64,000 nucleotides of DNA. Source: Chloroflexota bacterium (GTDB taxonomy: Bacteria; Chloroflexota; Anaerolineae; Aggregatilineales; Phototrophicaceae). Shown here piece by piece: positions 1-63,075 of this stretch (its first letter is position 1; every line of letters begins with the position of its first letter). The stretch is taken from contig JAPOWK010000093.1 of the NCBI GenBank assembly GCA_026707665.1, positions 12,137 through 76,136 on the forward strand. The letters are read 5' to 3'. Both the position numbers and the translations under genes were made by a program. The notes beneath the pieces were generated by a model, which was not told the origin of the DNA, made no database searches, and was given only the letters and a program-made list of their open reading frames with translations.

Positions 1-524
1 ACCGTCCGCACCAGGACCGAATACAAGCCCCAGGTGACGGCGGAGACCGCGAGAAAGACATTGCCGAGGAAACTGTCCGAGCTGAAGTCGGCGGCGGCGG
101 GATTCAATATCACGACTACACCGAGGCTCGACAATACGATGCTGGCGAGACGCGCCCTCGTCAGCCGTTCCCGCAGCAATAGCATCGCGAACAAGACGAC
201 AAAAGCCGGCGACGCGCTGGTGACCAGGGCGCCATTCAAAGCCGTCGACAGGTCGGTGCCTACAAACTGCGTTCCCAAGCTGATGCCCAGACCGACGGCG
301 CCAATGCCCAGCATCTCTGCTTTAGTCTGACCGTCAGCGACGGCTTGCCCTCTTGCCCGGTTTAGCGGGAGCAAAACCAGCAGCGCCAGAAGAATGCGCA
401 GCGTCAGCAAAGTAAACGGAGGGACGGAAACGAGCGTCACATCAGAAACGACATACATGCCGCCCCAGATGCTCGCAGCGGAAATGCCGTATACGGCGCC
501 GCGCAGAAGTTCCGACTTCGACAT
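1..524 (-). CDS. EamA/DMT-family transporter, N-terminal part (gene continues beyond the window start)
   Basis: My reverse-strand translation from the ATG (complement of 522-524) reads MSKSELLRGAVYGISAASIWGGMYVVSDVTLVSVPPFTLLTLRILLALLVLLP...ASPAFVVLFAMLLLRERLT...AVSAVTWGLYSVLVRT. It contains several hydrophobic helices in an EamA-like pattern. It is missing from the ORF track because it has no stop inside the window. The + ORF 34..330 is its antisense shadow. Confidence 0.6.
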   Translation of the reverse strand, partial: MSKSELLRGAVYGISAASIWGGMYVVSDVTLVSVPPFTLLTLRILLALLVLLPLNRARGQAVADGQTKAEMLGIGAVGLGISLGTQFVGTDLSTALNGALVTSASPAFVVLFAMLLLRERLTRARLASIVLSSLGVVVILNPAAADFSSDSFLGNVFLAVSAVTWGLYSVLVRT

Positions 525-610
525 CGCTGCCTGATCCAAGTCGTTCCAAGCAAATAATGAGTATGATTGCAGTATGGACGCAATCCTCAAAACAACGAAA
601 GGCTGTAGGG

Positions 611-683
611 GCAAGCCGGTGGCTCGCCCGCTTTTCTAAAGATAGCTTGTCAGTTTTCGCATGACCAACTTGGTTTTAGTTAC
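611..683. repeat. Copy A of a ~75-bp repeat (GC hairpin plus conserved tail TTTCGCATGACNAACTTGGTTYTA), upstream of the TIR-NTPase-HEAT gene
   Basis: gcaagccggtggctcgccc...cagttttcgcatgaccaacttggttttagttac aligns by eye with 7326-7400. Its 3' ~30 bp also aligns with 60648-60678. Confidence 0.7.
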
Positions 684-855
684 GTGAATGCAAGCAAGAA
701 TCTTAGCCGACGCTGCCTGACCGGGACAGCCTTCGTTGCGATGAGAACGAGAAGATTGACGGCGATATTCGATATCTGCCTATCGAGCCAAGAGTATAAT
801 TCTCTTAGCACATCGTAATGCCTGCGCGCCGAGGGCTTCAGTCATCAACGAGAGC

Positions 856-3800
856 TTGATTTATCTTTCCTACCATAACATTGATTTGGCCTACGCCTTT
901 CAATTGTCGAACTTGCTGATTCGCTATTATCGCAACGTCTGGCTGGATCGCTTTGAAATCGGACTGACCGAAGACTGGCGCGCCAACATCCTTGAGGCGC
1001 GGTCGCGGGCGACCGGCGTCATAGTTGTGGTCAGCGATGATTACCTTCAGTCGCCCTATTGCCGCGCTGAGTTCGAGACCTTCCAGGAGCGCGGCATTCC
1101 AGTCACCGCGGTGATTCCGCGTGACTTCTCCACCGAAATGATCGCCGACTTCACCTTCAACGACTGGATTGATTTTCGCCGCTGGTTTGACGATCCCAGC
1201 GATCTCAGCGTGGAGAATCTGTTGAGCCAGGTTCCGCAATCGGAGTCGGTCGCCAAGACCGGCGAACGGCTCGACTATCTTCGGGGCTTCATACAGGAAA
1301 CTGTGTTGGCGCTGTCGAAGATGCCGACGTCCTGGGCTTCGCTGCGCAATGCAGACGCGGACGGCGCGGCTGAGCTGCGACCGCGAATGATTCAGCCGGG
1401 CATGCTGACCGACTGGGACTTCAAGGGCGAAAAAGGCGGGCATTCAATCCCGATTGAGAATCTGCTGGCTTGGTCACAAGAGCAACCGCAATTCGTCATT
1501 CGCGGCGAAACCGGCAGCGGAATAACTTATTTCGCGCGGCTCCTGGCGCTTCAGCAAGCGCAAGCGGCCATTCGTGATGAGAATGAGCCGGCGCCGATAT
1601 GGCTGGACCTGGCGCGCTGGGATGGGAGTCATGGGAATCTCAGCGCGTTCATAGAGTCGCAATGGAGCCTGCTCACCTACTGGCAGCACTGGCTGGACCA
1701 GCATCAGTCCCTGATCGTACTCGACAATTGGCGTGATTTTGCCAACAGTCAGCCGGCGCTCGTCAGCGAACTAACAAGCTGGATTGACGCGAGCCCGAGC
1801 CAGCGTTTCGTCGTCGTATCCGACTTGAAGCCGGTCATGTCGCCAGATTTGCCGACCCTTCAAATCAACGGGATCAGCGCCCAACGCGCGCAGACTTTTG
1901 CCAGCGGCTGGCTGACGCTCGACCAGCAGAACAGCTTCCGCGGGATTCTGAAGCAGAAGAGCGCCTATTTCGACAATTGCCATTTGGACCATTTGTCCAT
2001 CGGCGTGGAATTGCTGACCGCCGACCGGGCGCTGGCCTTCAATCAATGGCACGAGAATCCGATGTCCGCCTTGATCGCCCTGCGAAGCCAACAGGAACCA
2101 AGCCATACTCGTGGCTTGGATAACAGGCAACTGCTGGCCGGGCTGCAACAACTCGCCTGGACGATGATGCTGCAAGACCATCATCGCTTCCTGGCGCGGG
2201 ACTCGGCGCTGAGCCAGTCGATTGATCCGAGAATCATTGACCGCGCGCTGGATCTTGGCTTGATGGATGAGAGCGGTAAGGTTCTCCGCTTTCACTGTGA
2301 GATCTTTCAATTGCACCTGGCGGCTGAGGGGCTCAAACGGGATGGCTTGAACAAGTATCTGACAAGGCCGGAATTCAGCGCCGAGGGCGAGCGCATCCCC
2401 AGGAAATGGGACAAGCTGACGCTGCTTTTGGTCGATGGCCTGGCGGAAGAGAGCCGACTGCAGGTGATTGACCAAATCGCCGACGTTGATCCCTTTATCG
2501 CGGCGGCCTGTTTGACGCGCCATCCGGAACTATCCAGCAGCTATCAGGACGCGCTGATCACGAAACTGGCGCAACTCTGCGCGCAGAATCCGGCGGCGCA
2601 GAGCGCGTTCCGCAGCGCCATCGCTGATCTGCCGAACGCGGACCTGACGGCAGAGCTGTTGATTGCTCAACTGAGCCGTTTCAACAATTCGCAGCAGTTG
2701 TGGCTCTGGCGGGAGATTCGCGCGCTGCCGCTTGAACTGCCGCTGGACTTTATCGGTCTGGTCTCGGAAGTCGATCGCGGATCGCCCGCTGCTATTTCGC
2801 AAGAGTTGACGCCATTTGGCTTATCGCGCTCCCTCGCCTATCTGGTGAAACTGTCCGCCAATCAGGATCAACGCATTCGGCGGAACGCAATCTGGATGCT
2901 GGGCGAGATTAAGTATCTGCCGACGGCGATTATCTTGCTGTCCTGCCTTGAAGAGGGCGAAGGCAGCGATCATGATGAAGTCGTCTTGGCGCTGATGAAA
3001 TACGCCTATTCCGAGCTGCTGGTTCGGGTTCTGCGCTGGTCGCAGGATCACCCGCAGCATCGGCCTGCTGTGATCAGAGCGCTCGCCGAACGCAAACGCT
3101 TGGTGACGAGCCGACTACTGGCGCTGGCCGATGCACGGCGGCTTACGCTCCAGCCCGAATTCTACGATATTGTCGTGAACACAGCCGAAGAGGACATCGC
3201 CATCGGGCTGGCGCAGCTCGCCGAAGACTCAGTCGATTTGCCTGAAACGATCGAGACGGCCATCCACAGCAAGCAGAATGCGGCTGCATTGCGCGCGCGG
3301 CTTGCCGCTTCAATCAAGCACTGGCCCAACCGCCAGGGCATTGAGCAGTTGGTGCCAATCATCGGCCGCGTGCTGAGCGATCCGCCCGAGTCGACCATTG
3401 TCGCCGGCAGCAATATTGAGGCGCTGCTCTACGGCCAGCCACTCTTCGATGATATCAAAGCGCAGGCCGAGCGGGAGACAAGCGAGGGTCTGCCTGACGC
3501 GTTGCAGGCTCAGTTGCGGCACGATGATGGGGAGCAGCGGCGCGGCGCGCTGTACAGCTTGGCTGATCATCCGGCCGATCTCGCCCTGCCCCCGCTGCTG
3601 GAAGCGTCACAGGACGAATACAAGCGCGTGCGGCTGGCTGCCTACGAAATCCTGGCTCGTTTTGAGAACGAGGAGGCGGCGCAGAAGGCGGTAAGCGCCG
3701 CCCTTGCCGATAGCGACATTGAGATTGTTGACGCTGTTATGGAGCTGCTCAAAGCGATGCCGTCGTTAGATTGCGGCGCGCTCATTGACCTGCTCGACAG

Positions 3801-4806
3801 CGAGAATCCAGACACGGTGGCGGCCGCGATTGACCTGCTCGGCTATGCGCGTCATCGACCGGCCGCGGACTATTTGCGTGAGCTTCTATCAGACGAGCGG
3901 CTGCCGGCCTATCGAGGCAAAACAATCGGGCAGCTTGCGCGACAGGCTTTGAGCCTTATCGATACATCGTTGATGGATGGCGAGCGAGGAGCTTATGCTC
4001 CGGGCAAACCCTCAAGCACGCCGGGCGGGGATGACTCGCTTGAATTCAGTGACGAAGAGAAGATCATTCGAACGCTGACCCTTCTGCGCGATGATGATTG
4101 GGGTCGGACGCAGAAGGCGGCCAAATTCTTGCGCAAATTCGCGCGACACTTGCGCGGCACGAATAATCCCGAGATTCTAAAGTTGCTCGGCGGCGCCTTG
4201 CAAGACGACAATTGGAGCGTGCGCTGGGCGAGCGCCGAGGCGCTGGCGATGCTGAACGACCGAAGCGCGATTCCCGCTTTGAGCGCTTGCATCAATGACC
4301 CGAGTTGGATCGTCCAGGTGGCGGTGGTTCGCGCGCTGGTGGAGCTCGGCGCAGTTGGATTGACGGCAAAGCTGGCGCCGCTGCTTCAGAGCTCGCGAAA
4401 AGCCGTGCGCGAAGCGACCGCTGAAGCCTTGGGAGCGCTGGGCGAAGCCGAGGCGATTCCCGCTCTTGGCGAGACGCTCAAGCGCGACGCCGATGAGTTT
4501 GTTCGCTTCGCCGCCCTAAGAGCCATCCATCAACTGGATCCAGGTGGCGCCCGCCCTCATCTGGAACTGGCGCTGAGCGACAGCAGTGTTCATTTGCGCT
4601 GGTTTGCTCTGCGCCAGTTAACATCGCAAATGAACGAGACGGATTTGCCGATTCTGAAGCAGCTGCTCAATGATCACAACAAGCCATCTTGGGAAAATGA
4701 GTCCATTCATGACCTCGCCATTTCGGCGCTGCAGCGCATCGCTACCGATGAGTCCAGGGCACTGCTTGATGCCGTCTCGCTCGCGGAAAAGCGGACGAGC
4801 CCATGA
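856..4806 (+). CDS. TIR domain / P-loop STAND NTPase / HEAT-repeat protein (1316 aa)
   Basis: TTG start at 856. The N-terminal ~120 aa are TIR-like (IYLSYHNIDLAYA..., VIVVVSDDYLQSPYCRAEFE with Glu72). Walker A is GETGSGIT (aa 217-224, nt 1504-1527) and a Walker-B-like SLIVLD lies at aa 285-290. The C-terminal ~600 aa consist of HEAT/PBS-lyase-type repeats (NWSVRWASAEALAMLNDRSAIPAL, DPSWIVQVAVVRALVELG, VREATAEALGALGEAEAIPAL). Confidence 0.8.
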   Translation: MIYLSYHNIDLAYAFQLSNLLIRYYRNVWLDRFEIGLTEDWRANILEARSRATGVIVVVSDDYLQSPYCRAEFETFQERGIPVTAVIPRDFSTEMIADFTFNDWIDFRRWFDDPSDLSVENLLSQVPQSESVAKTGERLDYLRGFIQETVLALSKMPTSWASLRNADADGAAELRPRMIQPGMLTDWDFKGEKGGHSIPIENLLAWSQEQPQFVIRGETGSGITYFARLLALQQAQAAIRDENEPAPIWLDLARWDGSHGNLSAFIESQWSLLTYWQHWLDQHQSLIVLDNWRDFANSQPALVSELTSWIDASPSQRFVVVSDLKPVMSPDLPTLQINGISAQRAQTFASGWLTLDQQNSFRGILKQKSAYFDNCHLDHLSIGVELLTADRALAFNQWHENPMSALIALRSQQEPSHTRGLDNRQLLAGLQQLAWTMMLQDHHRFLARDSALSQSIDPRIIDRALDLGLMDESGKVLRFHCEIFQLHLAAEGLKRDGLNKYLTRPEFSAEGERIPRKWDKLTLLLVDGLAEESRLQVIDQIADVDPFIAAACLTRHPELSSSYQDALITKLAQLCAQNPAAQSAFRSAIADLPNADLTAELLIAQLSRFNNSQQLWLWREIRALPLELPLDFIGLVSEVDRGSPAAISQELTPFGLSRSLAYLVKLSANQDQRIRRNAIWMLGEIKYLPTAIILLSCLEEGEGSDHDEVVLALMKYAYSELLVRVLRWSQDHPQHRPAVIRALAERKRLVTSRLLALADARRLTLQPEFYDIVVNTAEEDIAIGLAQLAEDSVDLPETIETAIHSKQNAAALRARLAASIKHWPNRQGIEQLVPIIGRVLSDPPESTIVAGSNIEALLYGQPLFDDIKAQAERETSEGLPDALQAQLRHDDGEQRRGALYSLADHPADLALPPLLEASQDEYKRVRLAAYEILARFENEEAAQKAVSAALADSDIEIVDAVMELLKAMPSLDCGALIDLLDSENPDTVAAAIDLLGYARHRPAADYLRELLSDERLPAYRGKTIGQLARQALSLIDTSLMDGERGAYAPGKPSSTPGGDDSLEFSDEEKIIRTLTLLRDDDWGRTQKAAKFLRKFARHLRGTNNPEILKLLGGALQDDNWSVRWASAEALAMLNDRSAIPALSACINDPSWIVQVAVVRALVELGAVGLTAKLAPLLQSSRKAVREATAEALGALGEAEAIPALGETLKRDADEFVRFAALRAIHQLDPGGARPHLELALSDSSVHLRWFALRQLTSQMNETDLPILKQLLNDHNKPSWENESIHDLAISALQRIATDESRALLDAVSLAEKRTSP

Positions 4807-6548
4807 AGATCTTCGTCAGTTATGCCCGTGTCGACAAGCCCTATTGCATCCGCATCATCGAAACTTTGCATGCGCACGACGTCTGGTACGACCAGCGGCT
4901 TTACGCCGGTCAAGACTGGTGGAAAGAGATCCTCCGCCGCCTGGACTGGTCGGAAGTCTTCGTCTATTTGCTGTCGCCGGATTCAGTGGCGTCGCTCTAC
5001 TGCCGCCGCGAGCTGGAGATTGCGCTGCGGTTGAAGCGCGACATCATCCCGGTGCTTATCAATGGCGACACCGTGCTGCCAGAGAATATGAAAGACTGGC
5101 AATATGTCGACCTGCGCGACAGCCTGACGGTGGAAAACGTCTCGCAACTGCTGAATGCGATTCTGCTGGTCGAACGACAGCGAGCCGGGGCCGCGCCGAC
5201 CTTAACGGTCACCAACGATGCGGCCGAAAGCAGCCCCGCCGCCACCAGCAAACCGGCTGAGCTGATCAGCGAAGCCGTAAGCGCGCTGGAAAAGGGCGAC
5301 TACGACAATGCCATCCTGTTGCTGAAACAAGCGAAAACGAGCGGTTATCAATCGCGATTCGTCAGCCTTGACAAATTGCTGCGCATCGCCGAAAGCGCGG
5401 TTGCAGATCGGACCGAGACGCGTGAAATTCAGCGAGAATACCAGCATATTGTTGCCCTGTTCGCCTTTGAAAGCACGCGCAAATTGGCTTGCGAAGCCTT
5501 GGCGGAATTCAAAAGAGAATTCGGCGATTATGATCCACAGGACTTGCAGCGCCATTGCCAGCCGGTCGCGCCGATTCGAGAATCAGCAGACGGCAGGACC
5601 CGCACACTAACGGGACCGCGCCGCGCGAACCCGGCTCAACCGACAGCGAATGACCGCGCCTCAAATCAGAAGCAAGGGCGCTCCATCGCTATTCAGGCCA
5701 GCAGCCAGGCATTGACCAGACCACGCGCTCAGAACGCGATTCCAGTTGCCGCGACAACGCAAGCCGCCAAGGTGGATGCCCCGACCATCCGTCAGATTAC
5801 CTCCTCTGATGAGGATTCGCTCGGCGTCAAGGAAGTCCTGCCTATGCTACAATGGTGCGACGTTCCTCATGGCACAGTCACCATTTCCAGCATCGTGGGC
5901 GCCGATGAAGACTTCGGCGAAGTTACCGAACAGGTGGATAATTTTGTGATGAGCAAGTTCCCGGTAACCAATGCGCAATTCGCGATATTCGCTGACGCCG
6001 AGGATGGTTATCGCAATCCTCGCTGGTGGGATTTTTCCCCGCATGCGCAGCGCTGGTTCAAATTACGCAAAGGGGTAGCCAAGTCTCGATTCAGCGGCGA
6101 CGCGCGACCGCGGGAAAACGTAAACTGGTATGAAGCAGTGGCTTTTTCCAATTGGCTCGGCAATCTGCTGGGCATGAAAATTACGCTGCCGACCATTGCC
6201 CAGTGGCAGCGCGCGGCAAAGGGCGACGATGATCGTTATTTCCCCTGGGGCGACGAATATGATGAGGAGCACTGCAATACGCTCGAAACAGGCCTCAAGA
6301 CCACCACGCCAGTGGACCGCTATCGGATGGGCGCAAGCCCTTATGGCATATATGACATGGCGGGAAATGTTTGGGAGTGGACCTCGAACACCGCGGCCGC
6401 GGCCGAAACGGGGCGAGACTTCCGGCGCGCCGTCGCTGGCGGCAGCTTTGTCAGCCCTTGTGACCGGGCGCATACGACATTTCGCTATTATCTTGATCCG
6501 CGCGTGCGCTATTCGTCGATCGGCATTCGATTGGTGGGCTTGACCTAG
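4803..6548 (+). CDS. TIR domain protein with C-terminal FGE-sulfatase (SUMF1-like) domain (581 aa)
   Basis: The ATG overlaps the upstream stop (ATGA, 4803-4806). The N-terminus is TIR-like (KIFVSYARVDKPY, VFVYLLSPDSVASLYCRRELE, Glu70). A Pro/Ala/Gln/Thr-rich linker follows. The C-terminus carries FGE-sulfatase fold motifs (PVTNAQFAIF, NVNWYEAVAFSNWLG, YDMAGNVWEWT, GGSF...IGIRLVG). Confidence 0.8.
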   Translation: MKIFVSYARVDKPYCIRIIETLHAHDVWYDQRLYAGQDWWKEILRRLDWSEVFVYLLSPDSVASLYCRRELEIALRLKRDIIPVLINGDTVLPENMKDWQYVDLRDSLTVENVSQLLNAILLVERQRAGAAPTLTVTNDAAESSPAATSKPAELISEAVSALEKGDYDNAILLLKQAKTSGYQSRFVSLDKLLRIAESAVADRTETREIQREYQHIVALFAFESTRKLACEALAEFKREFGDYDPQDLQRHCQPVAPIRESADGRTRTLTGPRRANPAQPTANDRASNQKQGRSIAIQASSQALTRPRAQNAIPVAATTQAAKVDAPTIRQITSSDEDSLGVKEVLPMLQWCDVPHGTVTISSIVGADEDFGEVTEQVDNFVMSKFPVTNAQFAIFADAEDGYRNPRWWDFSPHAQRWFKLRKGVAKSRFSGDARPRENVNWYEAVAFSNWLGNLLGMKITLPTIAQWQRAAKGDDDRYFPWGDEYDEEHCNTLETGLKTTTPVDRYRMGASPYGIYDMAGNVWEWTSNTAAAAETGRDFRRAVAGGSFVSPCDRAHTTFRYYLDPRVRYSSIGIRLVGLT

Positions 6549-6599
6549 ACTGAAGCCTTTGCCGCCACTGAAAACCAGGACTGTTGTGATGAAGGGATC

Positions 6600-7121
6600 G
6601 TGATGATGAGCGCGAATGAAGGCAAGGGGCATGGCAGCATGTCGCTGCGACCTGATATCAACATTGACATTGATCACTTGTCGGTAACCGGGCACGTAGT
6701 ATTCGCCGGGCGCGACGGCCAGGTGAAGGTGCAGACTGGCGGCGATGTCGCCCAGCACACCAACCAAACAGTGACCGTAGGCGGCGTTGAAACGACGCCG
6801 CAGGAATTCGACATGATGCTCCAATGCATACGCAATGTCGAGGACACCATCCAGAAGGAGAATCTGGCGACCGAAAACCGAGAGGCGGCGATGCATGACC
6901 TGCACACCGTAGAGGCGCAGCTATCCTCCAGCAAGAAGCCCAATCCGCGGATTCTGATGCGCGCTGCGAAATCGCTGCTGCGCTTTTCGCCCGCATTAAC
7001 CGCCGCCGCGCTGACACTCTTCGACCAACCTTTGGTTGGCGCCATACTCGCCAGCGTCGGGGAAGCCGCCATCAACTTCCAGGAGGCGATCTCGGGGCAG
7101 CGAGCCTCCAAGAAAATCTGA
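6600..7121 (+). CDS. Small hypothetical protein (173 aa) of the TIR/STAND cluster
   Basis: GTG/ATG start preceded by GAAGGGA. I recognise no family. It contains LSVTGHVVFAGRDGQVKV, which matches a segment of the next protein, followed by a helical C-terminal half. Same strand, 51 nt after the TIR-FGE gene. Confidence 0.5.
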   Translation: MMMSANEGKGHGSMSLRPDINIDIDHLSVTGHVVFAGRDGQVKVQTGGDVAQHTNQTVTVGGVETTPQEFDMMLQCIRNVEDTIQKENLATENREAAMHDLHTVEAQLSSSKKPNPRILMRAAKSLLRFSPALTAAALTLFDQPLVGAILASVGEAAINFQEAISGQRASKKI

Positions 7122-7325
7122 GTCGAATCATGCCGCAGATTTTATTCCGCGAAGCGCGCCGCCCCACCCTGCGCGCGCGTGCAAATCTCATACTCGGGCG
7201 ATCGCGGGCCCGGTTCTAAGTTTCGCTTCATACGACTCTTTAGCCGAGCAGAAGTAGTTACGAGTAAGTAATGAGAGTGATCGCCATTTGAATGCAATTT
7301 TGAATACAATGCAAAGTGTGTACGA

Positions 7326-7400
7326 GCGAGCCGGCAGCTCGCCCACTCGTGCTATAGATTTTCAGTTATTTTCGCATGACTAACTTGGTTCTACTGAGAC
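7326..7400. repeat. Copy B of the ~75-bp repeat, ending 1 nt before the NACHT gene start codon
   Basis: gcgagccggcagctcgccc...cagttattttcgcatgactaacttggttctactgagac, immediately followed by aATG (7402). Confidence 0.7.
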
Positions 7401-7401
7401 A

Positions 7402-9819
7402 ATGAATCGACCCATTCAGCAAGTCCCGGAAAAGGCAATCACCCGGCCCACGCGGGCCGCTAGCAGCCAAATGATGATCACGACGCCGGCCGCCTGGCGC
7501 AGCTTCGTGCAGACAAACTGGGCTCATTTGAAACGGCAGGCGGACAGCGCGGCGCTGGAATCGCCCTATCAGAAGCTGGTCATGATGGTCTTTGCGCCAG
7601 TCATGCCCAACCCAAATACCAAGCTGACCTTGCTGCGCCGTCTGCTCAAGAAATTCCGCTATTGCGAATCACTGAGCAAACGCATGACCGAGATCTATCG
7701 CGATCGCAATTACGCGCGCACGGCGGAAGAATTGGCTCGCCTCGAGCTCGTGCCAGAAAAATTGGATACAGACGAACTGATCGGACTGGACTGGCTCATC
7801 GTCGCCACAGGCGGTCTGGACGGCTCGGCGAATCAAGGCGGGCAGGCGATTCAATTCGCGCGCAACCTGCTGGAAGCTATGCGCGAACAGCGCGACTACC
7901 CATCGGCGGTGCGCGTCCAGGCGGGCAGCATCTCGGCTGGCGGTCATGTGATCTTTGCCGGACAAGATGTCAACATCGTCGCCGAACACTATCACGGCAA
8001 CAAGTCGGCGCTGAAAGCTTACCTTGCCGCGGTTCGCTCCGAGTGGAATATTCCGACGACGACCATCCATCCGGCATCGCAGCATCACACGCCGGCGATG
8101 CTGCACCAATTGTATACGCCGGTGGATATCTGGACCGACCAACGCCAATTTCACAACGTCGGCGATGAAGAACTGAACGCCCGGCGCTACCAGGCGATTG
8201 AGCGGGACATGGGTTATGTGCGCGAGTCCGTATTTGAAGTCATCTCGGCGAATCCGCTGATCGTCATCACGGGCGCCGCCGGGACCGGCAAAAGCTCACT
8301 TTGCCGCTTTATCGTGACCGCGCTCGCCTATGCCTGTGACCCGCGGGCGGAACGGCAGGACAAGGTCAAAGGGCTGGAGATGCTGGGCGCTTCCTGGATT
8401 CATGGGCCCATCCTGCCCGTCTATGTCAGCTTGCGCGACTTTGCCAGTTCGCCCGATCTGTTTCCGAAATCGCTGGCAGCCGCTTCATCAGAGCAGCTCT
8501 TGAATTATGTGAAGAATGCGACCGGCAATCTGGCGCCGCACCTGGAAGCCTACCTGACCCAATCCGATGTGCCCACGCATGGCAGCTTGATCGTTCTCGA
8601 TGGCCTTGACGAAGTGTATGAAGAAAATGACCGCATCATCTTGCAGCGGATCATCGAGAATTGGGCCGATCGTTTTCCCAGCTGCCGCGTCATCGTCACC
8701 AGTCGCACCTACGCCTACCGCCACGATTCGCGCTGGCGCCTCTCCGAGCGTTTCGCCTCCGCTGAATTGGCGCCCTTCACCTGGCAGCAGGTCAAATCCT
8801 ACATTGAGCGCTGGTACGCCAACGTCGCTGAGACCCGGCCCAGCGTGTTGGGCGGGCGCGCCGTCGCCGCCAGGCAGGGCGCCTTGATGGCGGCCGATCT
8901 CAACCAAGCCATACGCGCGAATCGAGCGCTCTGGCCTCTAGCCCGTCAGCCGCTGATGCTGGCGCTGCTCACGCTGATTCACGAAGACTACAAGCAGCTG
9001 CCGGACAAGCGCGCGGAACTGTACGAGCATACGGTGGAATTGCTCGATCGCTGGAATATCCCGTCGCCGGCGGACAAGCTGCATGAAAAGCTGGCCAATA
9101 TCAACCTGGACCGCATGCGGGCGGCGCTGAAGCTGATCGCCTTTGAGCTGCACTCGGAGCAGCAGAGTTATCAGCGCTATCCAACCATTGTCCACCGCGC
9201 GCGTCTGCTCGACAAATTGATTGAGCAGCAGTCATTCGGGCGCGGCTTGGGCGCCGGCATTGAAGACGTACTGGAATATCTGGCGACGCGCAACGGCATC
9301 CTGGTTTCGGACGCTCCCAATCTTTACCGCTTTCCCCATCTCACGATTCAGGAGTATCTGGCGGCTAGCGCCTTGATCGAGTTTTACGACGAATGCAGAA
9401 TGCCATCCGGCTTGCGGCCCCACAGCGCGGATGGCTGGACTTTTCCTGAGAACATTGTCGCCCTGCTCTGCCATGATTATGCGCGCTGGCGCAATGTCGC
9501 GCTCTTCGCCGGCGCCATCATCGCGGCCGGCAAATGGCAAGACATGCGCTGGCAGCTCATAGACGAGTTGCTGCCGACCCGCCTTGACGCCCCCTTGTCG
9601 GAACAGGAGCTGCACTGCATCAGTGTTGGCGCCGAAATCTGGGGAGAGAGCTGGTTGAAGTCGCGAACGCGCGGCCAGCTCGTCATTGAAGCGCACCTGG
9701 TCCGCTGCCTGCGGCACATCCACGGCGACGAGCGCATTGACGCGCCGGAACGCGCCAACAATTATGCGGTCTTGGCGCAGATTTCTCGCGCGCAATCGGC
9801 CCGCCCAAGCAAGAGATAG
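7402..9819 (+). CDS. NACHT-family STAND NTPase (805 aa)
   Basis: Walker A is VITGAAGTGKSSL (aa 288-300, nt ~8263-8301). Walker B is LIVLDGLDEV, followed by RVIVTSR, the usual NACHT order. There is a ~280-aa N-terminal region of unknown type and a helical C-terminal region with no obvious repeat sensor. Confidence 0.8.
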   Translation: MNRPIQQVPEKAITRPTRAASSQMMITTPAAWRSFVQTNWAHLKRQADSAALESPYQKLVMMVFAPVMPNPNTKLTLLRRLLKKFRYCESLSKRMTEIYRDRNYARTAEELARLELVPEKLDTDELIGLDWLIVATGGLDGSANQGGQAIQFARNLLEAMREQRDYPSAVRVQAGSISAGGHVIFAGQDVNIVAEHYHGNKSALKAYLAAVRSEWNIPTTTIHPASQHHTPAMLHQLYTPVDIWTDQRQFHNVGDEELNARRYQAIERDMGYVRESVFEVISANPLIVITGAAGTGKSSLCRFIVTALAYACDPRAERQDKVKGLEMLGASWIHGPILPVYVSLRDFASSPDLFPKSLAAASSEQLLNYVKNATGNLAPHLEAYLTQSDVPTHGSLIVLDGLDEVYEENDRIILQRIIENWADRFPSCRVIVTSRTYAYRHDSRWRLSERFASAELAPFTWQQVKSYIERWYANVAETRPSVLGGRAVAARQGALMAADLNQAIRANRALWPLARQPLMLALLTLIHEDYKQLPDKRAELYEHTVELLDRWNIPSPADKLHEKLANINLDRMRAALKLIAFELHSEQQSYQRYPTIVHRARLLDKLIEQQSFGRGLGAGIEDVLEYLATRNGILVSDAPNLYRFPHLTIQEYLAASALIEFYDECRMPSGLRPHSADGWTFPENIVALLCHDYARWRNVALFAGAIIAAGKWQDMRWQLIDELLPTRLDAPLSEQELHCISVGAEIWGESWLKSRTRGQLVIEAHLVRCLRHIHGDERIDAPERANNYAVLAQISRAQSARPSKR

Positions 9820-9832
9820 AAAGGACGCCTGA

Positions 9833-12136
9833 ATGATACCCATTCGAATGACTTGCCTGATTGTGTTGTTACTTTCCCTAAGTTGGGCGCAGGCGCAGGA
9901 GAATGACACGCAAGTCGTAATCACGAGGGAAGACGCCCCGTCGGCACGCAATATAAGACTGACTACGGTGGTGACCGAATTTGATCGCCCTCTGTATGTA
10001 ACACACGCCGGAGACGGCTCCGGGCGGCTCTTCGTGGTCGAACAAGGCGGGAAGATCTGGATCGTGCGCGCGGGGGTAAAGTCGGCGCTGCCTTTTCTGG
10101 ACGTCTCGCAGTTGATTTCACCGATTGCCTTGACTGGCGAATACACCGAACGCGGTCTGCTCGGGTTGGCATTTCACCCCGACTACAAGAACAACGGACA
10201 GCTATTCATCAATTATACTGACCGCAAGGGAGATACTGTAGTCTCCCGATATCGCGTTTCAGCGGAGAATCCGGACACCGTCGACGCATTAAACGCCGAC
10301 CTCATACTTTATTTGCGCCAGCCACACGAGTTCCACAATGGCGGGCATCTCGCTTTTGGTTCTGACGGCTATCTTTACATGGCGCTTGGCGACGGCGGGC
10401 CCGAGAAAGACCCGGCAGGCGCGGGTCAGAATCGGCAGATACTGCACGGATCGATTTTGCGCGTAGATGTGGATAGTGGCTCGCCCTACGTGATTCCGGC
10501 GGATAACCCCTTCGTCAACGACGCAGGCGCGCGCGACGAAATCTGGGCATACGGGCTGCGCAATCCCTGGCGCTTTAGCTTCGACCGAGCGACTGACGAT
10601 ATGTACATTGGCGATGTCGGCGATAGAAAGTGGGAAGAAGTCAACTTTGAACCTGCCGATAGCAGCGGCGGCCGGAATTATGGCTGGAATGTGTATGAAG
10701 GGAACGCAGAATTCGCCGGTGGCGAAGCGCCAAACTATTCGCCTCCATTCTTCGTATATGGCCACGAACATGGCTGCTCGGTGACCGGCGGTTACGTCTA
10801 TCGCGGTGAGGCGATTCCCGACTTGCAGGGCGTTTATCTCTTTGGCGATTTCTGCAGTGGCCGCATCTGGGCGTCCTGGCGCGATCCGGGCTACCATCGG
10901 CGCGTGATCGAGCTGATGGATACAGACCTGACGATAAGCAGCTTTGGTGAAGACGAAGCGGGCGAAACGTATCTGGTTGATTTCAATCGCGGAAGACTGT
11001 ATCGCATTGACCCCTATTTCGTCACCGCGGTCACAACGCGGGATCAGGCGCCGCAAGTTGAGAATTTCTCGCTCACGAGAGTCGCGGCTGGCTTTCACAG
11101 GCCGCTATACGTCACGCATGCTGGCGATGCTTCCGGCAGGCTCTTCCTGGTCGAGCAGAGCGGCAAAATTTGGATCTTGCGCGATGGCGTAAAATCTGGA
11201 CAGCCCTTCCTTGATATTTCGCATTTGATCTCACAGGTCGCGCTAACAAGCCAGTATACCGAACAGGGATTGTTGGGCTTGGCATTTCATCCCGAGTACG
11301 CGACGAACGGCAGGTTCTTTGTCAACTATACGGACAGGGACGGCAGTACCCTTGTCTCGCGCTATCAAGTTTCACTGGACAATGCAGATTTTGCCGATGC
11401 CGCCAGCGCGCGAGTCATCTTCCAGTTGCCGCAGCCATACAACAACCACAACGGCGGGCATATTGACTTCGGGCACGATGGCTATCTGTATATCGCGCTT
11501 GGCGATGGCGGTTCGGCAAATGATCCGCTTGGCGCCGGGCAAAATCGGCAGCTTCTGCTCGGCTCAATCCTGCGAATTGATGTGGACAGCGCAAGCCCCT
11601 ACGCCATTCCACCGGACAATCCCTTTGTCAGCGACGCGTCGGGCCTCGACGAAATCTGGTCATACGGCTGGCGCAATCCCTGGCGTTTCAGCTTCGACCG
11701 CGCGACCGGGGATATGTACATCGCCGATGTCGGACAGAATCAATGGGAGGAAGTCAATTTCGAGCCAGCTTCCAGCATAGGCGGCGAGAATTATGGCTGG
11801 AACGTCTTTGAAGGAAACACCCAATTCTCCGGCGGCAGCGCGCCGGATGCGGTGGATCCCTTCTTTGTTTACGGGCATTCGCATGGCTGCTCTGTCACCG
11901 GCGGTTACATTTATCGTGGCGAAGCGATACCAGATCTTCAGGCAGCTTATCTCTTCGGCGACTTTTGCAGCGGGCGCATTTGGGCGACATGGCGCGACAG
12001 TGCATACATTTGGAGAGCGGCCGAACTGTTTCAGGCTGGATTTGAGATCAGCAGCTTCGGCGAGGACGAAGCGGGCGAAATGTACGTCATAGATTATGGC
12101 GGCGCGCTCTATCGATTTGATCCCGTTGACAACTAA
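9833..12136 (+). CDS. Secreted tandem-duplicated PQQ-dependent sugar (glucose/sorbosone) dehydrogenase-like beta-propeller protein (767 aa)
   Basis: N-terminal signal peptide (MIPIRMTCLIVLLLSLSWAQA). Two homologous halves are offset by ~371 aa. Each carries RPLYVTHAGD.SGRLF.VEQ.GKIWI, GLLGLAFHP.Y, NGGH..FG.DGYLY.ALGDGG and CSVTGGY.YRGEAIPDLQ. Confidence 0.75.
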   Translation: MIPIRMTCLIVLLLSLSWAQAQENDTQVVITREDAPSARNIRLTTVVTEFDRPLYVTHAGDGSGRLFVVEQGGKIWIVRAGVKSALPFLDVSQLISPIALTGEYTERGLLGLAFHPDYKNNGQLFINYTDRKGDTVVSRYRVSAENPDTVDALNADLILYLRQPHEFHNGGHLAFGSDGYLYMALGDGGPEKDPAGAGQNRQILHGSILRVDVDSGSPYVIPADNPFVNDAGARDEIWAYGLRNPWRFSFDRATDDMYIGDVGDRKWEEVNFEPADSSGGRNYGWNVYEGNAEFAGGEAPNYSPPFFVYGHEHGCSVTGGYVYRGEAIPDLQGVYLFGDFCSGRIWASWRDPGYHRRVIELMDTDLTISSFGEDEAGETYLVDFNRGRLYRIDPYFVTAVTTRDQAPQVENFSLTRVAAGFHRPLYVTHAGDASGRLFLVEQSGKIWILRDGVKSGQPFLDISHLISQVALTSQYTEQGLLGLAFHPEYATNGRFFVNYTDRDGSTLVSRYQVSLDNADFADAASARVIFQLPQPYNNHNGGHIDFGHDGYLYIALGDGGSANDPLGAGQNRQLLLGSILRIDVDSASPYAIPPDNPFVSDASGLDEIWSYGWRNPWRFSFDRATGDMYIADVGQNQWEEVNFEPASSIGGENYGWNVFEGNTQFSGGSAPDAVDPFFVYGHSHGCSVTGGYIYRGEAIPDLQAAYLFGDFCSGRIWATWRDSAYIWRAAELFQAGFEISSFGEDEAGEMYVIDYGGALYRFDPVDN

Positions 12137-48024: not shown

Positions 48025-48972
48025 TCAGCCGATGGCGCGCTTCAGCGCGTCGCGATATTCTGTTCTCATCCGCCTGCTGACCACCGCATCGGGCACGGAC
48101 ATTTCGGCGCCGTGGTACATCCCGGCATAGACTTGCAGATCAGTCGGCACACCGGCGGCCATCAAGCGCTGCGCAAATTCAATATCCTCGTCACGGAACA
48201 AGTCCATCGCGCCCACCGTAACCAAGGCCGGCGGCAAGCCGCTAAGATCTTTGGCCCGGGCCGCCGCCGCATACGGGGACACACAATCTGTACCATATTC
48301 GTCGCCCAAGTACATCTTCCAGGCTTTGAATGACAGTTCACGGTTCCAGACTGTGGGATGCGTGACCGCGTGGCCAGAAGGCGTGTCATGTCTATCGTCT
48401 AGCATCGGGTAAATCAGCAGTTGGAAGGCGACATCATGCCCGGCATGATCGCGATTGTACAGCGATACACCCGCTGTTAAGCCGCCGCCAGCGCTCGCTC
48501 CGCCGATAGCGATGCGCATAGGATCGACACCCAGTTGACTTGCGCTGTCGAAAATCCAATTCAGCGCGCCTACGCAATCGGACACGGCAGCCTGATACCT
48601 GTTTTCAGGCGCGAGACGGTAATCCACCGAGACGACCGTACAGCCGACATGTTCGGAAAAGCCGATACCGTGGGGATCATTGCGTCCTGAGCCGATGATG
48701 AAACCGCCGCCATGGATCCAAAGCAGAGCTCCGCGCGGCGCCGGCGTCGGCGGTTCATAAACGACGATCGCGATCTCGCCATCGGGACCTGGAATGGTCC
48801 GCTCTTCGATCGTGATTTCGGACGGCTGCAGGTCGTCAGCAAGGGCATCCCAAATCGGCTGATACATCTCGCGCGCTTTCGGCGGATCATCGCCGACGGC
48901 CTTCATCAATTCGACCGGGAAGAACTCCAGTCCGCGCGCGATTTCGGGGTCTACTTGATCGACGAAGGACAT
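48025..48972 (-). CDS. Alpha/beta hydrolase (hormone-sensitive-lipase-like esterase), tandem copy 1
   Basis: LWIHGGGFIIGS (oxyanion HGGG), GGASAGG (nucleophile elbow), DLFRDE (Asp), MYHGAE (His). Confidence 0.8.
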   Translation of the reverse strand: MSFVDQVDPEIARGLEFFPVELMKAVGDDPPKAREMYQPIWDALADDLQPSEITIEERTIPGPDGEIAIVVYEPPTPAPRGALLWIHGGGFIIGSGRNDPHGIGFSEHVGCTVVSVDYRLAPENRYQAAVSDCVGALNWIFDSASQLGVDPMRIAIGGASAGGGLTAGVSLYNRDHAGHDVAFQLLIYPMLDDRHDTPSGHAVTHPTVWNRELSFKAWKMYLGDEYGTDCVSPYAAAARAKDLSGLPPALVTVGAMDLFRDEDIEFAQRLMAAGVPTDLQVYAGMYHGAEMSVPDAVVSRRMRTEYRDALKRAIG

Positions 48973-49043
48973 GGCTCGCCTCGCTATTATTCCGTCGCAA
49001 TATGACAGGTTTCAGCCGCGAATTTACGGTCTGTCCAGCTAGA

Positions 49044-49991
49044 TCAGCCGATGGCGCGCTTCACAGCGTCGCGATATTCCTTTCTCATCCGTCTGCTGAC
49101 CACCGCTTCGGGCACGGACATTTCGGCGCCGTGAATCATTCCCGGATAAACCTGCAAATCCGTCGGCACGCCAGCCGCCATGAGTCGCTGCGCATAATCG
49201 ATGTTCTCGTCACGGAACAAATCCAGGGCGCCTACCGTTACGAAGGCGGGCGGCAAATTGCTGAAATCCTTGGCGCGCGCCGCCGCCGCGTAAGGCGACA
49301 CTGGATCCCTGCCAAATTCGTCGCCCAAATACATCTTCCAGGCGGCCAAGGACACCTGACGATGCCAGACTGTGGGATGCGTAATTTCATGTCCCGATGG
49401 CGTATCATGCCTATCGTCAATCATCGGATATAGCATCAATTGCAGCTTAAGCGCAGGACCGCCCTGGTCACGGTTGTAATGCGCCAGCCCAGCGGTCAAG
49501 CCGCCGCCCGCGCTGCCGCCGCCTATTGCGATGCGCTCCCGGTCAATTCCCAATGCAGACGCGTTATCCACCATCCATTTCAGCGCCGCGAAACAATCGG
49601 CGATGCTCTCTTTGTAAGTCGATTCGGGCGCCAGGCGATAGTCCACTGAAACGACGGTACAGTCCACGTGCTCGGCGAATCCAACACCGTGATAATCAGC
49701 GCGCGCCGTGCCCACGATGTAGCCGCCGCCATGCATCCACAGCAATCCCCCGCGCGGCGCCGGCGTCGGCGGCTGATAGATGACGACGGGAATGTCGCCA
49801 TCCGGTCCGGCGAAGGCAGTCTCTTCAATCGTCACCTCAGTATGTGGTAGCGCGTCCCGCAATCTACTTTGGTACTCTTCCGTCAACTGTCGCGCTCTTG
49901 GCGGGTCTTCGCCGACGGCGACAAAGCGCTCAGCCGGCATCAGGTCGAGCGCGCCGACGAGTTCGGGGTCGATTCGGTCGATGAAGGACAT
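49044..49991 (-). CDS. Alpha/beta hydrolase (HSL-like esterase), tandem copy 2
   Basis: LWMHGGGYIVGT, GGGSAGG, DLFRDE, MIHGAE. 315 aa. Confidence 0.8.
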   Translation of the reverse strand: MSFIDRIDPELVGALDLMPAERFVAVGEDPPRARQLTEEYQSRLRDALPHTEVTIEETAFAGPDGDIPVVIYQPPTPAPRGGLLWMHGGGYIVGTARADYHGVGFAEHVDCTVVSVDYRLAPESTYKESIADCFAALKWMVDNASALGIDRERIAIGGGSAGGGLTAGLAHYNRDQGGPALKLQLMLYPMIDDRHDTPSGHEITHPTVWHRQVSLAAWKMYLGDEFGRDPVSPYAAAARAKDFSNLPPAFVTVGALDLFRDENIDYAQRLMAAGVPTDLQVYPGMIHGAEMSVPEAVVSRRMRKEYRDAVKRAIG

Positions 49992-50062
49992 GAGTCTGCT
50001 CCCTAGGTTTCCGGCGAGAAAAGTGGCGCCCTTATGGCGACTGCCCGCTCGCTCCGTCGCAG

Positions 50063-61602: not shown

Positions 61603-63075
61603 CTACATCGGCCCGATACGCTCGGGACCCCGATAAAGCGTCAGCATGGTCGCGTCAAAGCTGCGCTGCAGCAAATCCAGCTTCAGCCCTTGATGCGCCG
61701 CGCTGTCCCACAGGTCTTCAAACTCGCCCGGGTCGGTCTCCAGGTCATAGAGTTCGCCCAGGTCGTGGTTGTGATAGACGATGAGCTTGTAGCGGCTGTC
61801 GACGTACATGGTGGCGACCGTGGCGGCGGGCATATCCAGCGCGTCTATGAATTCGCAACGCGCGAAATCGCGATGATGGTCTGGTGAGCGCATTCCTCGC
61901 AGGATCGGCAGCAGCGACTTTCCTGTGATGGTGCTCGGGACATCCAAGCCGCAGGCTTCCAGCAGCGTCGGCACAATGTCAGTCAATTCGACCAAGGCAT
62001 TGCTGCGCAGTCCGCTGGCGAACCTACCACGCCAGGACCAGATCAAGGGGACGCGAACCAGCCCCTCGTAAAAGCGACAGCCCTTCTGAATCAAGCCGTG
62101 ATCGCCCAGGGATTCGCCATGATCGCTGGTGAATATGACGATCGTGTTTTCGCCCTGCTCAAATGTATCCAGCGCCTCCATGATCCGCCCCACTTTGTCA
62201 TCAATGAGTTTGATCATCGCATAATAGGCGGCAATCAAGGTTTGCGCATCACGCTCGCCGCCGGTCTCCGGCTCCGCGTAGGACGGAGTGGGCGATTGCG
62301 GCAGGATCGGGCTCTTGATGTCGAGATCATCGGGACGGCGCGCTTCCGACTGAAAATCAATAGCCGCTAGTTTCGCCTGCTGCGCCAGGTCGCTTTCACG
62401 GAACAGCGGCGGCTTTACCTCGCTAGGATCAAAAAGGTCGCGATAGCTCTGCGGCGGATTGAATGGCGGATGCGGATCATAGATGTTGACGCTGGCAAAC
62501 CAGGGTCGATCTTGATTCGCCTCGATGAATTCGATGGTCTTTTCCGCGCACCAGGTCGTCTGATGCAGCTCGGCTGGTACGCCCGCCACGTCTTTGGTCA
62601 GCTCGCCCAGGTCGGCGCCCTGGGAACGCACCCAATCGGCGTAATCGTGCCCGTTCTCCCAGTCATCACGCGGCGCGTGACTGTATTGCCAATAGCTGTA
62701 GCCGTCATCGGTCCGCTTCTCGATCCGACCGTAGGCGCTGGTCATATGCAGCTTGCCGATCAGCCCGCAGGTGTAGCCGGCCTCAGCCAGGCGCTTGCTG
62801 ATCAAGGGCGGGAAATCAGGGAAGGTCGGATTTCCATTGCGGTTGACGTGAATCGAGCTGGGATACATTCCGGTGAGAAAGCTGGCGCGGCTTGGCGTGC
62901 AGATTGGCGCTTGGCAGTACGCCCGTTCAAAGGCGACGCCGGATCGCGTGAGCTGGTCTAGGTTGGGCGTGGACACTTGAGGATAACCCAGCGCAGCGAT
63001 GGTGTCATAGCGCTGCTGATCGGTGCATATCCAGAGAATGTTGGGACTTCTTTCACCTTGATTCATGTCGTCCAC
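61603..63075 (-). CDS. Sulfatase (formylglycine-dependent arylsulfatase family)
   Basis: PNILWICTDQQRYD plus the CTPSRASFLTG sulfatase signature. Confidence 0.85.
   Translation of the reverse strand: MDDMNQGERSPNILWICTDQQRYDTIAALGYPQVSTPNLDQLTRSGVAFERAYCQAPICTPSRASFLTGMYPSSIHVNRNGNPTFPDFPPLISKRLAEAGYTCGLIGKLHMTSAYGRIEKRTDDGYSYWQYSHAPRDDWENGHDYADWVRSQGADLGELTKDVAGVPAELHQTTWCAEKTIEFIEANQDRPWFASVNIYDPHPPFNPPQSYRDLFDPSEVKPPLFRESDLAQQAKLAAIDFQSEARRPDDLDIKSPILPQSPTPSYAEPETGGERDAQTLIAAYYAMIKLIDDKVGRIMEALDTFEQGENTIVIFTSDHGESLGDHGLIQKGCRFYEGLVRVPLIWSWRGRFASGLRSNALVELTDIVPTLLEACGLDVPSTITGKSLLPILRGMRSPDHHRDFARCEFIDALDMPAATVATMYVDSRYKLIVYHNHDLGELYDLETDPGEFEDLWDSAAHQGLKLDLLQRSFDATMLTLYRGPERIGPM

Follow-up and report, generated by a model that had tools for sequence, protein, structure and literature searches.

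The gene analysed here lies in a 64,000-nt stretch of Chloroflexota DNA (contig JAPOWK010000093.1; "the window" hereafter means this whole stretch) and encodes a protein, designated TIR-FGS, that is composed of three modules: a TIR domain, a helical module and, tethered by a linker, a C-terminal domain (FGS) with the fold common to formylglycine-generating enzymes (FGE) and C-type lectins. Judging from its residues and profile scores, the FGS domain is neither an FGE nor an EgtB-type enzyme; because the catalytic cysteine pair of the former has been lost and the DinB domain of the latter was never present, it would act as a binding module and not as a sulfatase maturase. With about even confidence, we read FGS as the sensor and TIR as the effector of this protein. 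The sensor-plus-effector TIR+FGS type has already been described by comparative genomics (Kaur et al. 2020, 2021); the present family differs in having the helical module, a HEAT-repeat partner, the lack of MoxR, vWA, adaptor and diversity-generating retroelement (DGR) components, and a slowly evolving cassette located in the core genome.

The combination of a TIR domain with an FGE fold had been proposed in an earlier reading made from the sequence alone (hereafter the sequence-only reading) and was recovered in profile searches in which both domains are covered nearly in full, Pfam TIR_2 matching aa 3-116 (E 1.6e-22, profile positions 1-121 of 122) and Pfam FGE-sulfatase (PF03781) matching aa 352-578 (E 4.6e-39, profile positions 6-254 of 255). 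A first AlphaFold2 model, based on 62 orthologues all at least 63% identical, had a mean predicted local distance difference test score (pLDDT) of 55 and is used as weak support only; a second model, based on 70 diverse relatives, reached a mean pLDDT of 84, with the folded parts above 90. In Foldseek searches, this good model of the whole protein matched the folds of FGE, pFGE, EgtB, ToxD and TvpA together with a SPARTA TIR. Its C-terminal domain matched ToxD, EgtB, CalU17, pFGE, copper-bound FGE, TvpA, CarF, PvdO and PorK with E values from 1e-16 to 1e-9, the values being 1e-13 to 1e-15 for the FGE structures 6s07, 2q17 and 6muj and 5e-14 for TvpA (2y3c). With FGEs (human SUMF1 and those of Thermomonospora, Streptomyces and Mycobacterium) the domain shares the fold (Foldseek ca. 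1e-15) and the motifs W-Y-E-A-x-A-F, G-N-V-W-E-W and G-G-S. TIR-FGS is a cytoplasmic protein, with no apparent signal peptide and a TIR beta-A strand that starts at residue 2.

Cys336 and Cys341 of human FGE are the Cu(I) ligands of the enzyme. A phmmer search against PDB aligned the true FGEs over query residues 101-197 only, missing the cysteine region, and a family hidden Markov model was therefore used instead, with residues 89-374 of human SUMF1 as reference (100% identical to PDB 1y1e over 286 residues). In this alignment, 'GGSFV---SPCDRA' faces 'GGSYMchrSYCYRY', so that Cys553 of TIR-FGS is the equivalent of human Cys341 while human Cys336 falls in a 3-residue deletion. The single cysteine noticed in the sequence-only reading is thus real, and the lack of the catalytic pair is a feature that TIR-FGS has in common with pFGE/SUMF2. 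Cys553 and Cys491 are both invariant in the clade of closest relatives (described below); in distant members of the same architecture, position 553 is occupied by Tyr, His, Gly, Ala, Gln or Ser and lies outside the conserved columns. The FGS residues that are conserved family-wide are structural fold motifs.

An enzymatic role with a chemistry other than that of FGE would have FGS act as an oxidase or transferase resembling ToxD or CalU17, possibly via Cys553, on a small molecule linked to the TIR products. ToxD is the best PDB match by sequence (E 1.8e-17) as well as by fold (Foldseek 1.3e-16), EgtB and CalU17 also come ahead of true FGEs, the two cysteines mentioned above do not vary in the clade, and relatives bear the NCBI label 'SUMF1/EgtB/PvdO family nonheme iron enzyme', others being named 'formylglycine-generating enzyme required for sulfatase activity'. 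We nevertheless regard this possibility as very improbable. Cys553 varies in the wider family and the residues that do not are those of the fold; the DinB iron domain, which carries the three-His site of EgtB, OvoA and SenA, was not found by Pfam, the N-terminus being occupied by TIR; and all NCBIfam enzyme models scored far below their cut-offs (35-75 bits versus 350-500 for EgtB, OvoA, SenA, PvdO and GldK, the EgtB/OvoA/SenA equivalogs giving 54-75 bits versus 360-420). As to the NCBI name, it is a generic superfamily label, and public annotation of TIR-FGS proteins as nonheme iron enzymes or FGEs is misleading.

The window does contain a sulfatase gene (61603..63075, minus strand; Pfam Sulfatase E 3e-49, plus SGSH_C), the product of which needs a maturase because it has a Cys-type CTPSR motif, and neither another FGE homologue nor an obvious anSME was found in the 64 kb. 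That TIR-FGS would be a genuine FGE maturing this sulfatase is nonetheless next to impossible: of the two essential Cu-binding cysteines one is deleted and the other varies within the family, the genes are 55 kb apart, no sulfatase gene occurs among the called genes or conserved flanking genes of the related loci inspected, and FGS forms part of a TIR fusion whose gene is co-transcribed with STAND and HEAT genes. The gene for the maturase, which may for example be an anSME, presumably lies in another part of the genome, beyond the window. Unlike FGE and pFGE, TIR-FGS has a TIR fusion and is devoid of a signal peptide, of an endoplasmic reticulum or periplasmic context and of a sulfatase neighbourhood, and the sequence-only reading was right in setting aside a role in sulfatase maturation.

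The N-terminal domain models as a TIR, as had been expected, with pLDDT above 90 and a SPARTA TIR as Foldseek match at rank 50 in the second model, the weaker first model having given matches to the TIRs of SPARTA, SARM1, MyD88 and AbTir. Glu70 ('YCRRELEIA') aligns with the Glu of 'WCLMEL' in L6 and of 'WCWDEL' in Cat1; every member of the clade has it, and among wider relatives that are 29-57% identical its conservation is at least 90%. On these sequence grounds the TIR is catalytically plausible. It resembles the TIR NADase effectors (SPARTA TIR-APAZ, Thoeris ThsB, Cat1 and AbTir) in its fold and in having the catalytic Glu in a 'C-x-x-E-L' helix but, unlike SPARTA, Thoeris and Cat1, it comes with no Argonaute, ThsA or CRISPR partner and has an FGE fold as its C-terminal partner domain. 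When tested for Thoeris membership, TIR-FGS scored 15 bits with the ThcB4 model versus a cut-off of 220, and no ThsA-like partner was found among the neighbours by Pfam or among the genes of related loci.

Between TIR and FGS, the sequence-only reading had seen a Pro/Ala/Thr/Gln-rich linker. This description holds for aa 256-345, a stretch of variable length and of pLDDT below 50 that is rich in Ala, Arg, Thr, Gln, Pro and Ser and is much shorter in distant relatives (disorder being predicted at 136-145 and 263-340 in the second model), but not for aa 151-252, which form a conserved, family-specific helical module of ca. 100 aa. Apart from aa 256-345, variability and disorder are confined to aa 130-150. 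Helices are predicted there at 151-163, 167-179, 189-219, 223-240 and 248-252 with pLDDT ca. 90; in the model, the module opens with a TPR-like hairpin, after which come two long helices. The module has no Pfam family, Pfam and PDB profile searches giving sub-threshold TPR or PPR-like matches only, and no paralogue of it was found within the window. Matches of PPR type to designer repeat proteins were rejected as artefacts of summed weak repeats. No P-loop domain was found between TIR and FGS, the space being taken up by the helical module and the linker; with no NTPase switch in its polypeptide, TIR-FGS does not qualify as a single-chain NLR of the Avs or bNACHT kind.

The modular layout is also visible in the conservation pattern. 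In an alignment of 119 full-length relatives from the protein search, mean identity to the window reference was 87% for TIR (aa 1-125), 76% for the helical module (aa 151-255) and 84% for the FGE fold (aa 346-581), the variable stretches giving 33% (aa 126-150) and 21% (aa 256-345). Ratios of nonsynonymous to synonymous substitution (dN/dS), calculated pairwise between the window and six relatives, were 0.04-0.08 for TIR, 0.02-0.14 for the helical module and 0.05-0.10 for the FGE fold, with 0.13-0.58 for the linkers (0.39-0.58 for aa 256-345); PMI and NACHT, two neighbouring genes included for comparison, gave 0.20-0.26 and 0.05-0.08, respectively. All folded modules of TIR-FGS are under strong purifying selection.

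The gene directly upstream, TIR-STAND-HEAT, also encodes a TIR protein, in which Pfam detected TIR_2 at aa 2-113 (E 3e-13), HEAT_2 (E 5e-45) with many HEAT repeats, and a weak NACHT match (E 0.0027, ca. aa 214-349). The sequence at its end reads ...GCCC ATG A AG..., the stop codon being the TGA at 4804-4806, so that the start of TIR-FGS overlaps it by 4 bp. This ATGA overlap, which the sequence-only reading had taken as a sign of translational coupling to a TIR-NTPase gene, is kept in 63 of the 73 related loci despite differing flanking bases and suggests that the two genes may indeed be translationally coupled; in distant relatives it is replaced mostly by gaps of 6-45 nt, two loci having gaps of 125 and 210 nt. 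A TIR-STAND-HEAT homologue lies directly upstream of TIR-FGS in the 61 clade loci and in eight others of our series (L066-L070, L075, L077 and L079), and a HEAT-only protein of 294-535 aa that shares the C-terminal HEAT module of the window partner is found there in four more (L063, L071, L072 and L074). A HEAT-containing partner is thus present directly upstream down to ca. 34-40% identity and, in the subfamily closest to the window protein, the constant companion of TIR-FGS is a specific HEAT module.

This tight association raises the possibility that TIR-FGS is an adaptor, sensing and oligomerisation being the task of TIR-STAND-HEAT or of the neighbouring NACHT protein, and TIR-FGS being recruited through TIR-TIR contacts, or through binding of HEAT to its helical or FGS module, either to supply one more TIR subunit or to regulate or restrain the system. 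Both proteins start with a TIR_2 domain that keeps the catalytic Glu (Glu72 is conserved in TIR-STAND-HEAT), the ATGA overlap implies a fixed stoichiometry, the HEAT module is always retained in the closest subfamily even where TIR-STAND is missing, and the slow evolution of FGS would fit a protein-protein interface with a co-inherited partner. Analogues in Kaur et al. likewise have the same N-terminal domain on an NTPase and on a separate effector, and pairs of TIR-TERNS3 with vWA-L+TIR+FGS are listed there as well. We hold this reading to be possible but doubtful, since distant members occur alone or in tandem with no HEAT or STAND neighbour, since FGS is found elsewhere in the sensor position of NACHT proteins, and since an identity of no more than 25% between the two TIR domains means that they are not a recent duplicate pair.

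The distribution of the family bears on several of these points. A word-indexed protein search returned full-length proteins, 63-90% identical, in more than 120 clusters (clustering at 90% identity); all have TIR_2 and FGE-sulfatase, and the named members come from Chloroflexota metagenome-assembled genomes. When one genome per GTDB species was scanned, 70 loci were found, all in Chloroflexota (Anaerolineae, Aggregatilineales or Phototrophicaceae). The sponge Aplysina aerophoba is the source of one of them (L061, MPMG01 bin20), and several others, judging from their isolate names (COS, APA, CAR, RHO and SB0662), are probably sponge bins too; the literature, when searched for TIR proteins of sponge Chloroflexi, gave nothing specific. 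When 1.84 billion representatives were searched exhaustively with phmmer, 1257 proteins were obtained at E <= 1e-30. Among the best 150 matches, ca. 100 are proteins of 480-560 aa with the same three modules, matched over two stretches (aa 1-255 and 345-580) at 30-57% identity, and all named members of this wider family are from Chloroflexota or Anaerolineae.

Some of the distant members have other surroundings. In one locus (L178, 7753-10025), the TIR-helical-FGS gene adjoins a fusion of HEAT repeats with an N6/N4 methyltransferase and, downstream, a CfrBI-type restriction enzyme; in another (L077, 1-3579), it adjoins Prim-Pol and methyltransferase genes. These surroundings are defence-island or mobile-element-like, unlike those in the window. 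No HEAT or STAND neighbour was seen in L076 and L179-L181, where TIR-FGS genes sometimes occur as tandem paralogues, with pairs in L181 (6001-9284, preceded by two DnaJ-domain genes) and in L179 (1384-2742 and 6001-7476); the protein can therefore be autonomous.

A scan of JGI metagenomes was run with a pattern taken from the FGS domain only and thus mostly collects relatives of this domain, not a census of the family. The closest FGS relatives obtained in this way are mostly C-terminal domains of NACHT proteins: a NACHT homologue occurs just upstream of FGS in 30 of the 54 loci having at least 2.5 kb of upstream DNA, and in 28 of these 30 both lie in one open frame of ca. 900-1200 aa. The sensor reading of TIR-FGS fits this observation, the nearest metagenome relatives of its FGS occupying the sensor position of NACHT proteins (PMC8195603, PMC13581612), and the proposal by Kaur et al. 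that FGS domains are non-enzymatic binding domains. In STAND/NACHT proteins whose sensors are FGE-sulfatase-like (bNACHT, preprint by Kibby et al. 10.1101/2022.07.19.500537; PMC13581612), the C-terminal sensor is an FGE-fold domain of the same type and TIR is a common effector; in the window, unlike in NACHT-FGS receptors, FGS and the NTPases are on separate polypeptides, TIR-FGS has no NTPase switch of its own and the NACHT neighbour has no sensor repeats.

TIR-STAND-HEAT and TIR-FGS are followed by two further genes, encoding a small protein of ca. 170 aa and a NACHT protein. Of the 61 clade loci, 59 have all four genes colinear on the same strand, and the cassette they form is passed on vertically. 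Their flanks are syntenic, with an ABC transporter, APH and EamA upstream and GSDH, a 460-aa ORF, PMI and ClpB downstream. The same four genes were found with different flanks in L067 and L075, the latter with 55% identity across the N-terminal 253 residues; the cassette is therefore a unit. For the small protein no Pfam family was found, the PADLOC candidate PDC-M14B being a weak match (E 2e-5). It has a conserved hydrophobic C-terminus and an N-terminal beta-rich motif that is common to the NACHT protein (aa 15-42, 6642-6725, in the former and aa 165-192, 7894-7977, in the latter; hhalign probability 83%, E 1e-5). The matching motif resembles those by which NLRs and separate effectors are paired (adaptor or amyloid-type motifs) and, by this analogy, suggests that genes 3 and 4 may form a pair. 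The NACHT protein itself has no repeat-type sensor domain.

Median identities to the window across the clade are 55% for TIR-STAND-HEAT, 69% for TIR-FGS, 79% for the small protein and 84% for NACHT (57 species-level relatives), as compared with 67% for PMI, 73% for the 460-aa ORF and 82% for ClpB. In 28 of 31 loci, the conservation of NACHT exceeds that of ClpB, which is atypical for an immune receptor. Diversification of FGS by a DGR was considered, the FGE/C-type-lectin fold being the ligand-binding scaffold of DGR variable proteins such as Treponema TvpA and Bordetella phage Mtd. No template-repeat-like copy of the 3' 300 nt of the gene and no reverse transcriptase were found in the window and, unlike in TvpA and Mtd, the position of the 'variable region' is invariant among orthologues, so that no sign of such diversification was seen.

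A role outside defence would account for several of these features. TIR-FGS would then belong to a lineage-specific housekeeping signalling system, or to a system of regulated cell death, in filamentous Chloroflexota, some of them sponge symbionts, its FGS reading a conserved self or host molecule, e.g. a glycan or envelope component, and not a phage product. Such a role is in line with the core-genome synteny (ABC transporter, EamA, GSDH, PMI and ClpB) across 61 species-level genomes, with dN/dS values of the folded modules below those of the housekeeping gene PMI, with a NACHT more conserved than ClpB, with the member from A. aerophoba (at least one member having this origin), with a neighbourhood that has neither DGR nor mobile-element genes nor known defence genes within the window, and with a scan of viral contigs that gave matches to the FGS domain only and no full-length TIR-helical-FGS protein. 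We consider it unlikely all the same, some distant members adjoining restriction-modification or Prim-Pol genes, and the occurrence of the cassette in other contexts (L075 and L067) indicating that it can move. To our knowledge, moreover, architectures that combine TIR with STAND/NACHT and keep the catalytic Glu have proved to be immune or abortive-infection devices wherever tested (Thoeris, Avs, bNACHT and SPARTA).

According to the reading in which FGS senses and TIR executes, the system would act as an NLR-like conflict or cell-death device. TIR effectors, as known from SPARTA, Thoeris, SARM1 and plant TNLs, are induced to oligomerise and then cleave NAD+. By the same logic, FGS would recognise a molecular cue; binding of this cue, or activation of the partner, would bring TIR domains together, and the assembled TIR active sites would cleave NAD+, leading either to its depletion or to an ADP-ribose-derived signal. 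TIR-FGS would be co-translated with TIR-STAND-HEAT and would probably reside in a complex with it, in which the TIRs of both proteins could co-assemble. That FGS binds a ligand, that TIR acts as an NADase, that a complex is formed and that the system serves immunity or cell death are all proposals made from sequence. The sequence-only reading had gone further in one respect, viewing TIR-FGS as a sensor-effector in one polypeptide. Its sensor part fits the literature and the NACHT-FGS fusions, but the view of one polypeptide is too simple for a gene that is locked into a pair with a HEAT protein and into a four-gene cassette.

Several observations weigh against this sensor and effector scheme. 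We know of no TIR-FGS protein, nor of any FGE-fold sensor of a bacterial immune-type system, that has been characterised biochemically, and the sensing part could be FGS, HEAT or neither. FGS evolves slowly, its C-terminal 62 residues being near-invariant (dN/dS 0.03-0.19), which is unlike the hypervariable DGR-linked FGS sensors and arms-race receptors, and the cassette resides in conserved synteny between housekeeping genes (ABC transporter, ClpB and PMI), not in a defence island. PADLOC matches of TIR-FGS to ThsB are weak and partial (E 7e-6 to 6e-3). Finally, the Walker A motif of TIR-STAND-HEAT reads GETGSGIT (aa 217-224, window 1504-1527) where the closest orthologues have GETGSGKT, and in a separate subclade the position of the Lys is taken by Thr, Arg or Gly; the partner NTPase may thus be impaired or inactive in the window genome, or the Ile may be a sequencing error.

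A more far-reaching idea, which we find rather improbable, is that of a 'split NLR' network. The four genes would form this network, inherited vertically as a core-genome component by a clade of Chloroflexota with a sponge symbiont among its members, TIR-FGS being a detachable sensor/effector arm that is equivalent to what forms the C-terminal half in NACHT-FGS fusions and serves the sensor-less NACHT, the TIR-STAND-HEAT switch, or both; FGS would read a conserved self or host ligand, and the network would control the fate of filament or symbiont cells and not serve classical anti-phage defence. The Rosetta-stone argument that NACHT-FGS fusions imply the use of FGS in trans by the window NACHT is likewise given a low probability, because any NACHT query matches those fusions at 25-33% identity.

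As to known systems, FGS domains have been described as non-enzymatic 'neutralising' or binding effectors always located C-terminal to other domains (Kaur et al. 2020, PMC7159879) and as intracellular, invader-sensing lectin-fold domains combined with STAND NTPases and TIR (Kaur et al. 2021, PMC8195603); FGE-sulfatase-like sensors on defence STANDs have also been reported (Nature 2026, 'Diverse bacterial pattern recognition receptors', PMC13581612). Fusions of TIR with an FGE-type domain, which the sequence-only reading had singled out, are already catalogued, 94 'TIR+FGS' entries being listed in the supplement of Kaur et al., e.g. TIR-TERNS3 with MoxR, vWA and vWA-L+TIR+FGS; among them are TIR-bearing NTPase-like genes paired with a (vWA-L+)TIR+FGS gene. 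The window protein resembles these conflict systems of multicellular bacteria in its non-enzymatic FGS placed C-terminally behind a TIR effector (their 'strict architectural syntax') and in its Chloroflexi or filamentous hosts, direct binding of the invader having been proposed there. Two STAND-type genes flank TIR-FGS and may correspond to the STAND NTPases of these systems, although some distant members have no NTPase neighbour. Unlike in these systems, MoxR, vWA, EAD and Death-like domains were not detected among the neighbours and there is no DGR, a component of many but not all of them, the C-terminus of FGS being invariant; a family-specific helical module is inserted between TIR and FGS, the HEAT-repeat partner is obligatory, and the locus belongs to the core genome and evolves under strong purifying selection.

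The features of the locus are collected in Table 1. A promoter and terminator scan of positions 1..10200 was uninformative, terminators occurring at or below shuffle expectation, and the rest of the window encodes ordinary metabolism.

Table 1. Genes, domains and key codons of the TIR-FGS locus, in window coordinates.
Feature	Position	Strand	Basis
TIR-STAND-HEAT, upstream partner gene, 1316 aa	856..4806	+	ORF list, Pfam
TIR-FGS (TIR-helical-FGS) gene, 581 aa, ATG start	4803..6548	+	Open reading frame (ORF) list
ATGA start/stop overlap of TIR-STAND-HEAT and TIR-FGS	4803..4806	+	Sequence
TIR domain of TIR-FGS (aa 1-129)	4803..5189	+	Pfam TIR_2
Glu70 codon of TIR-FGS	5010-5012	+	Alignment
Helical module of TIR-FGS (aa 151-252)	5253..5558	+	Model, conservation
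Disordered linker of TIR-FGS (aa 256-345)	5568..5837	+	pLDDT, variability
FGE/C-type-lectin-fold (FGS) domain (aa 346-581)	5838..6545	+	Pfam, Foldseek
Cys553 codon of TIR-FGS	6459-6461	+	HMM (hidden Markov model) alignment
Third cassette gene, 173-aa protein	6600..7121	+	ORF; no Pfam family
Fourth cassette gene, 805-aa NACHT NTPase	7402..9819	+	Pfam NACHT E 1e-11

Two other observations were made in the window. The glucose/sorbosone dehydrogenase (GSDH) gene next to the cassette (9833-12136) encodes a tandem two-domain protein of 767 aa, most syntenic relatives having a single-domain form of ca. 395 aa; the long form apparently also occurs in L047 and L055. Further away, three tandem ORFs of equal length (315 aa; 48025-51010, minus strand), of which that at 48028-48972 is of the Abhydrolase_3 esterase/lipase type, look like a local expansion of paralogues.

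What FGS domains recognise is a question posed both in Kaur et al. (2020, 2021) and in the 2026 survey of STAND proteins, and the TIR-FGS family offers a compact test case for it, with proteins of ca. 500-580 aa, a confident model, a single Glu to mutate, a conserved FGS and a defined HEAT partner. Overall, TIR-FGS is a clean and tractable example of a proposed sensor class that has an atypical evolutionary signature, and not a new principle. Its core-genome synteny, together with a NACHT more conserved than ClpB, bears on whether all bacterial TIR/STAND modules are arms-race defence genes.

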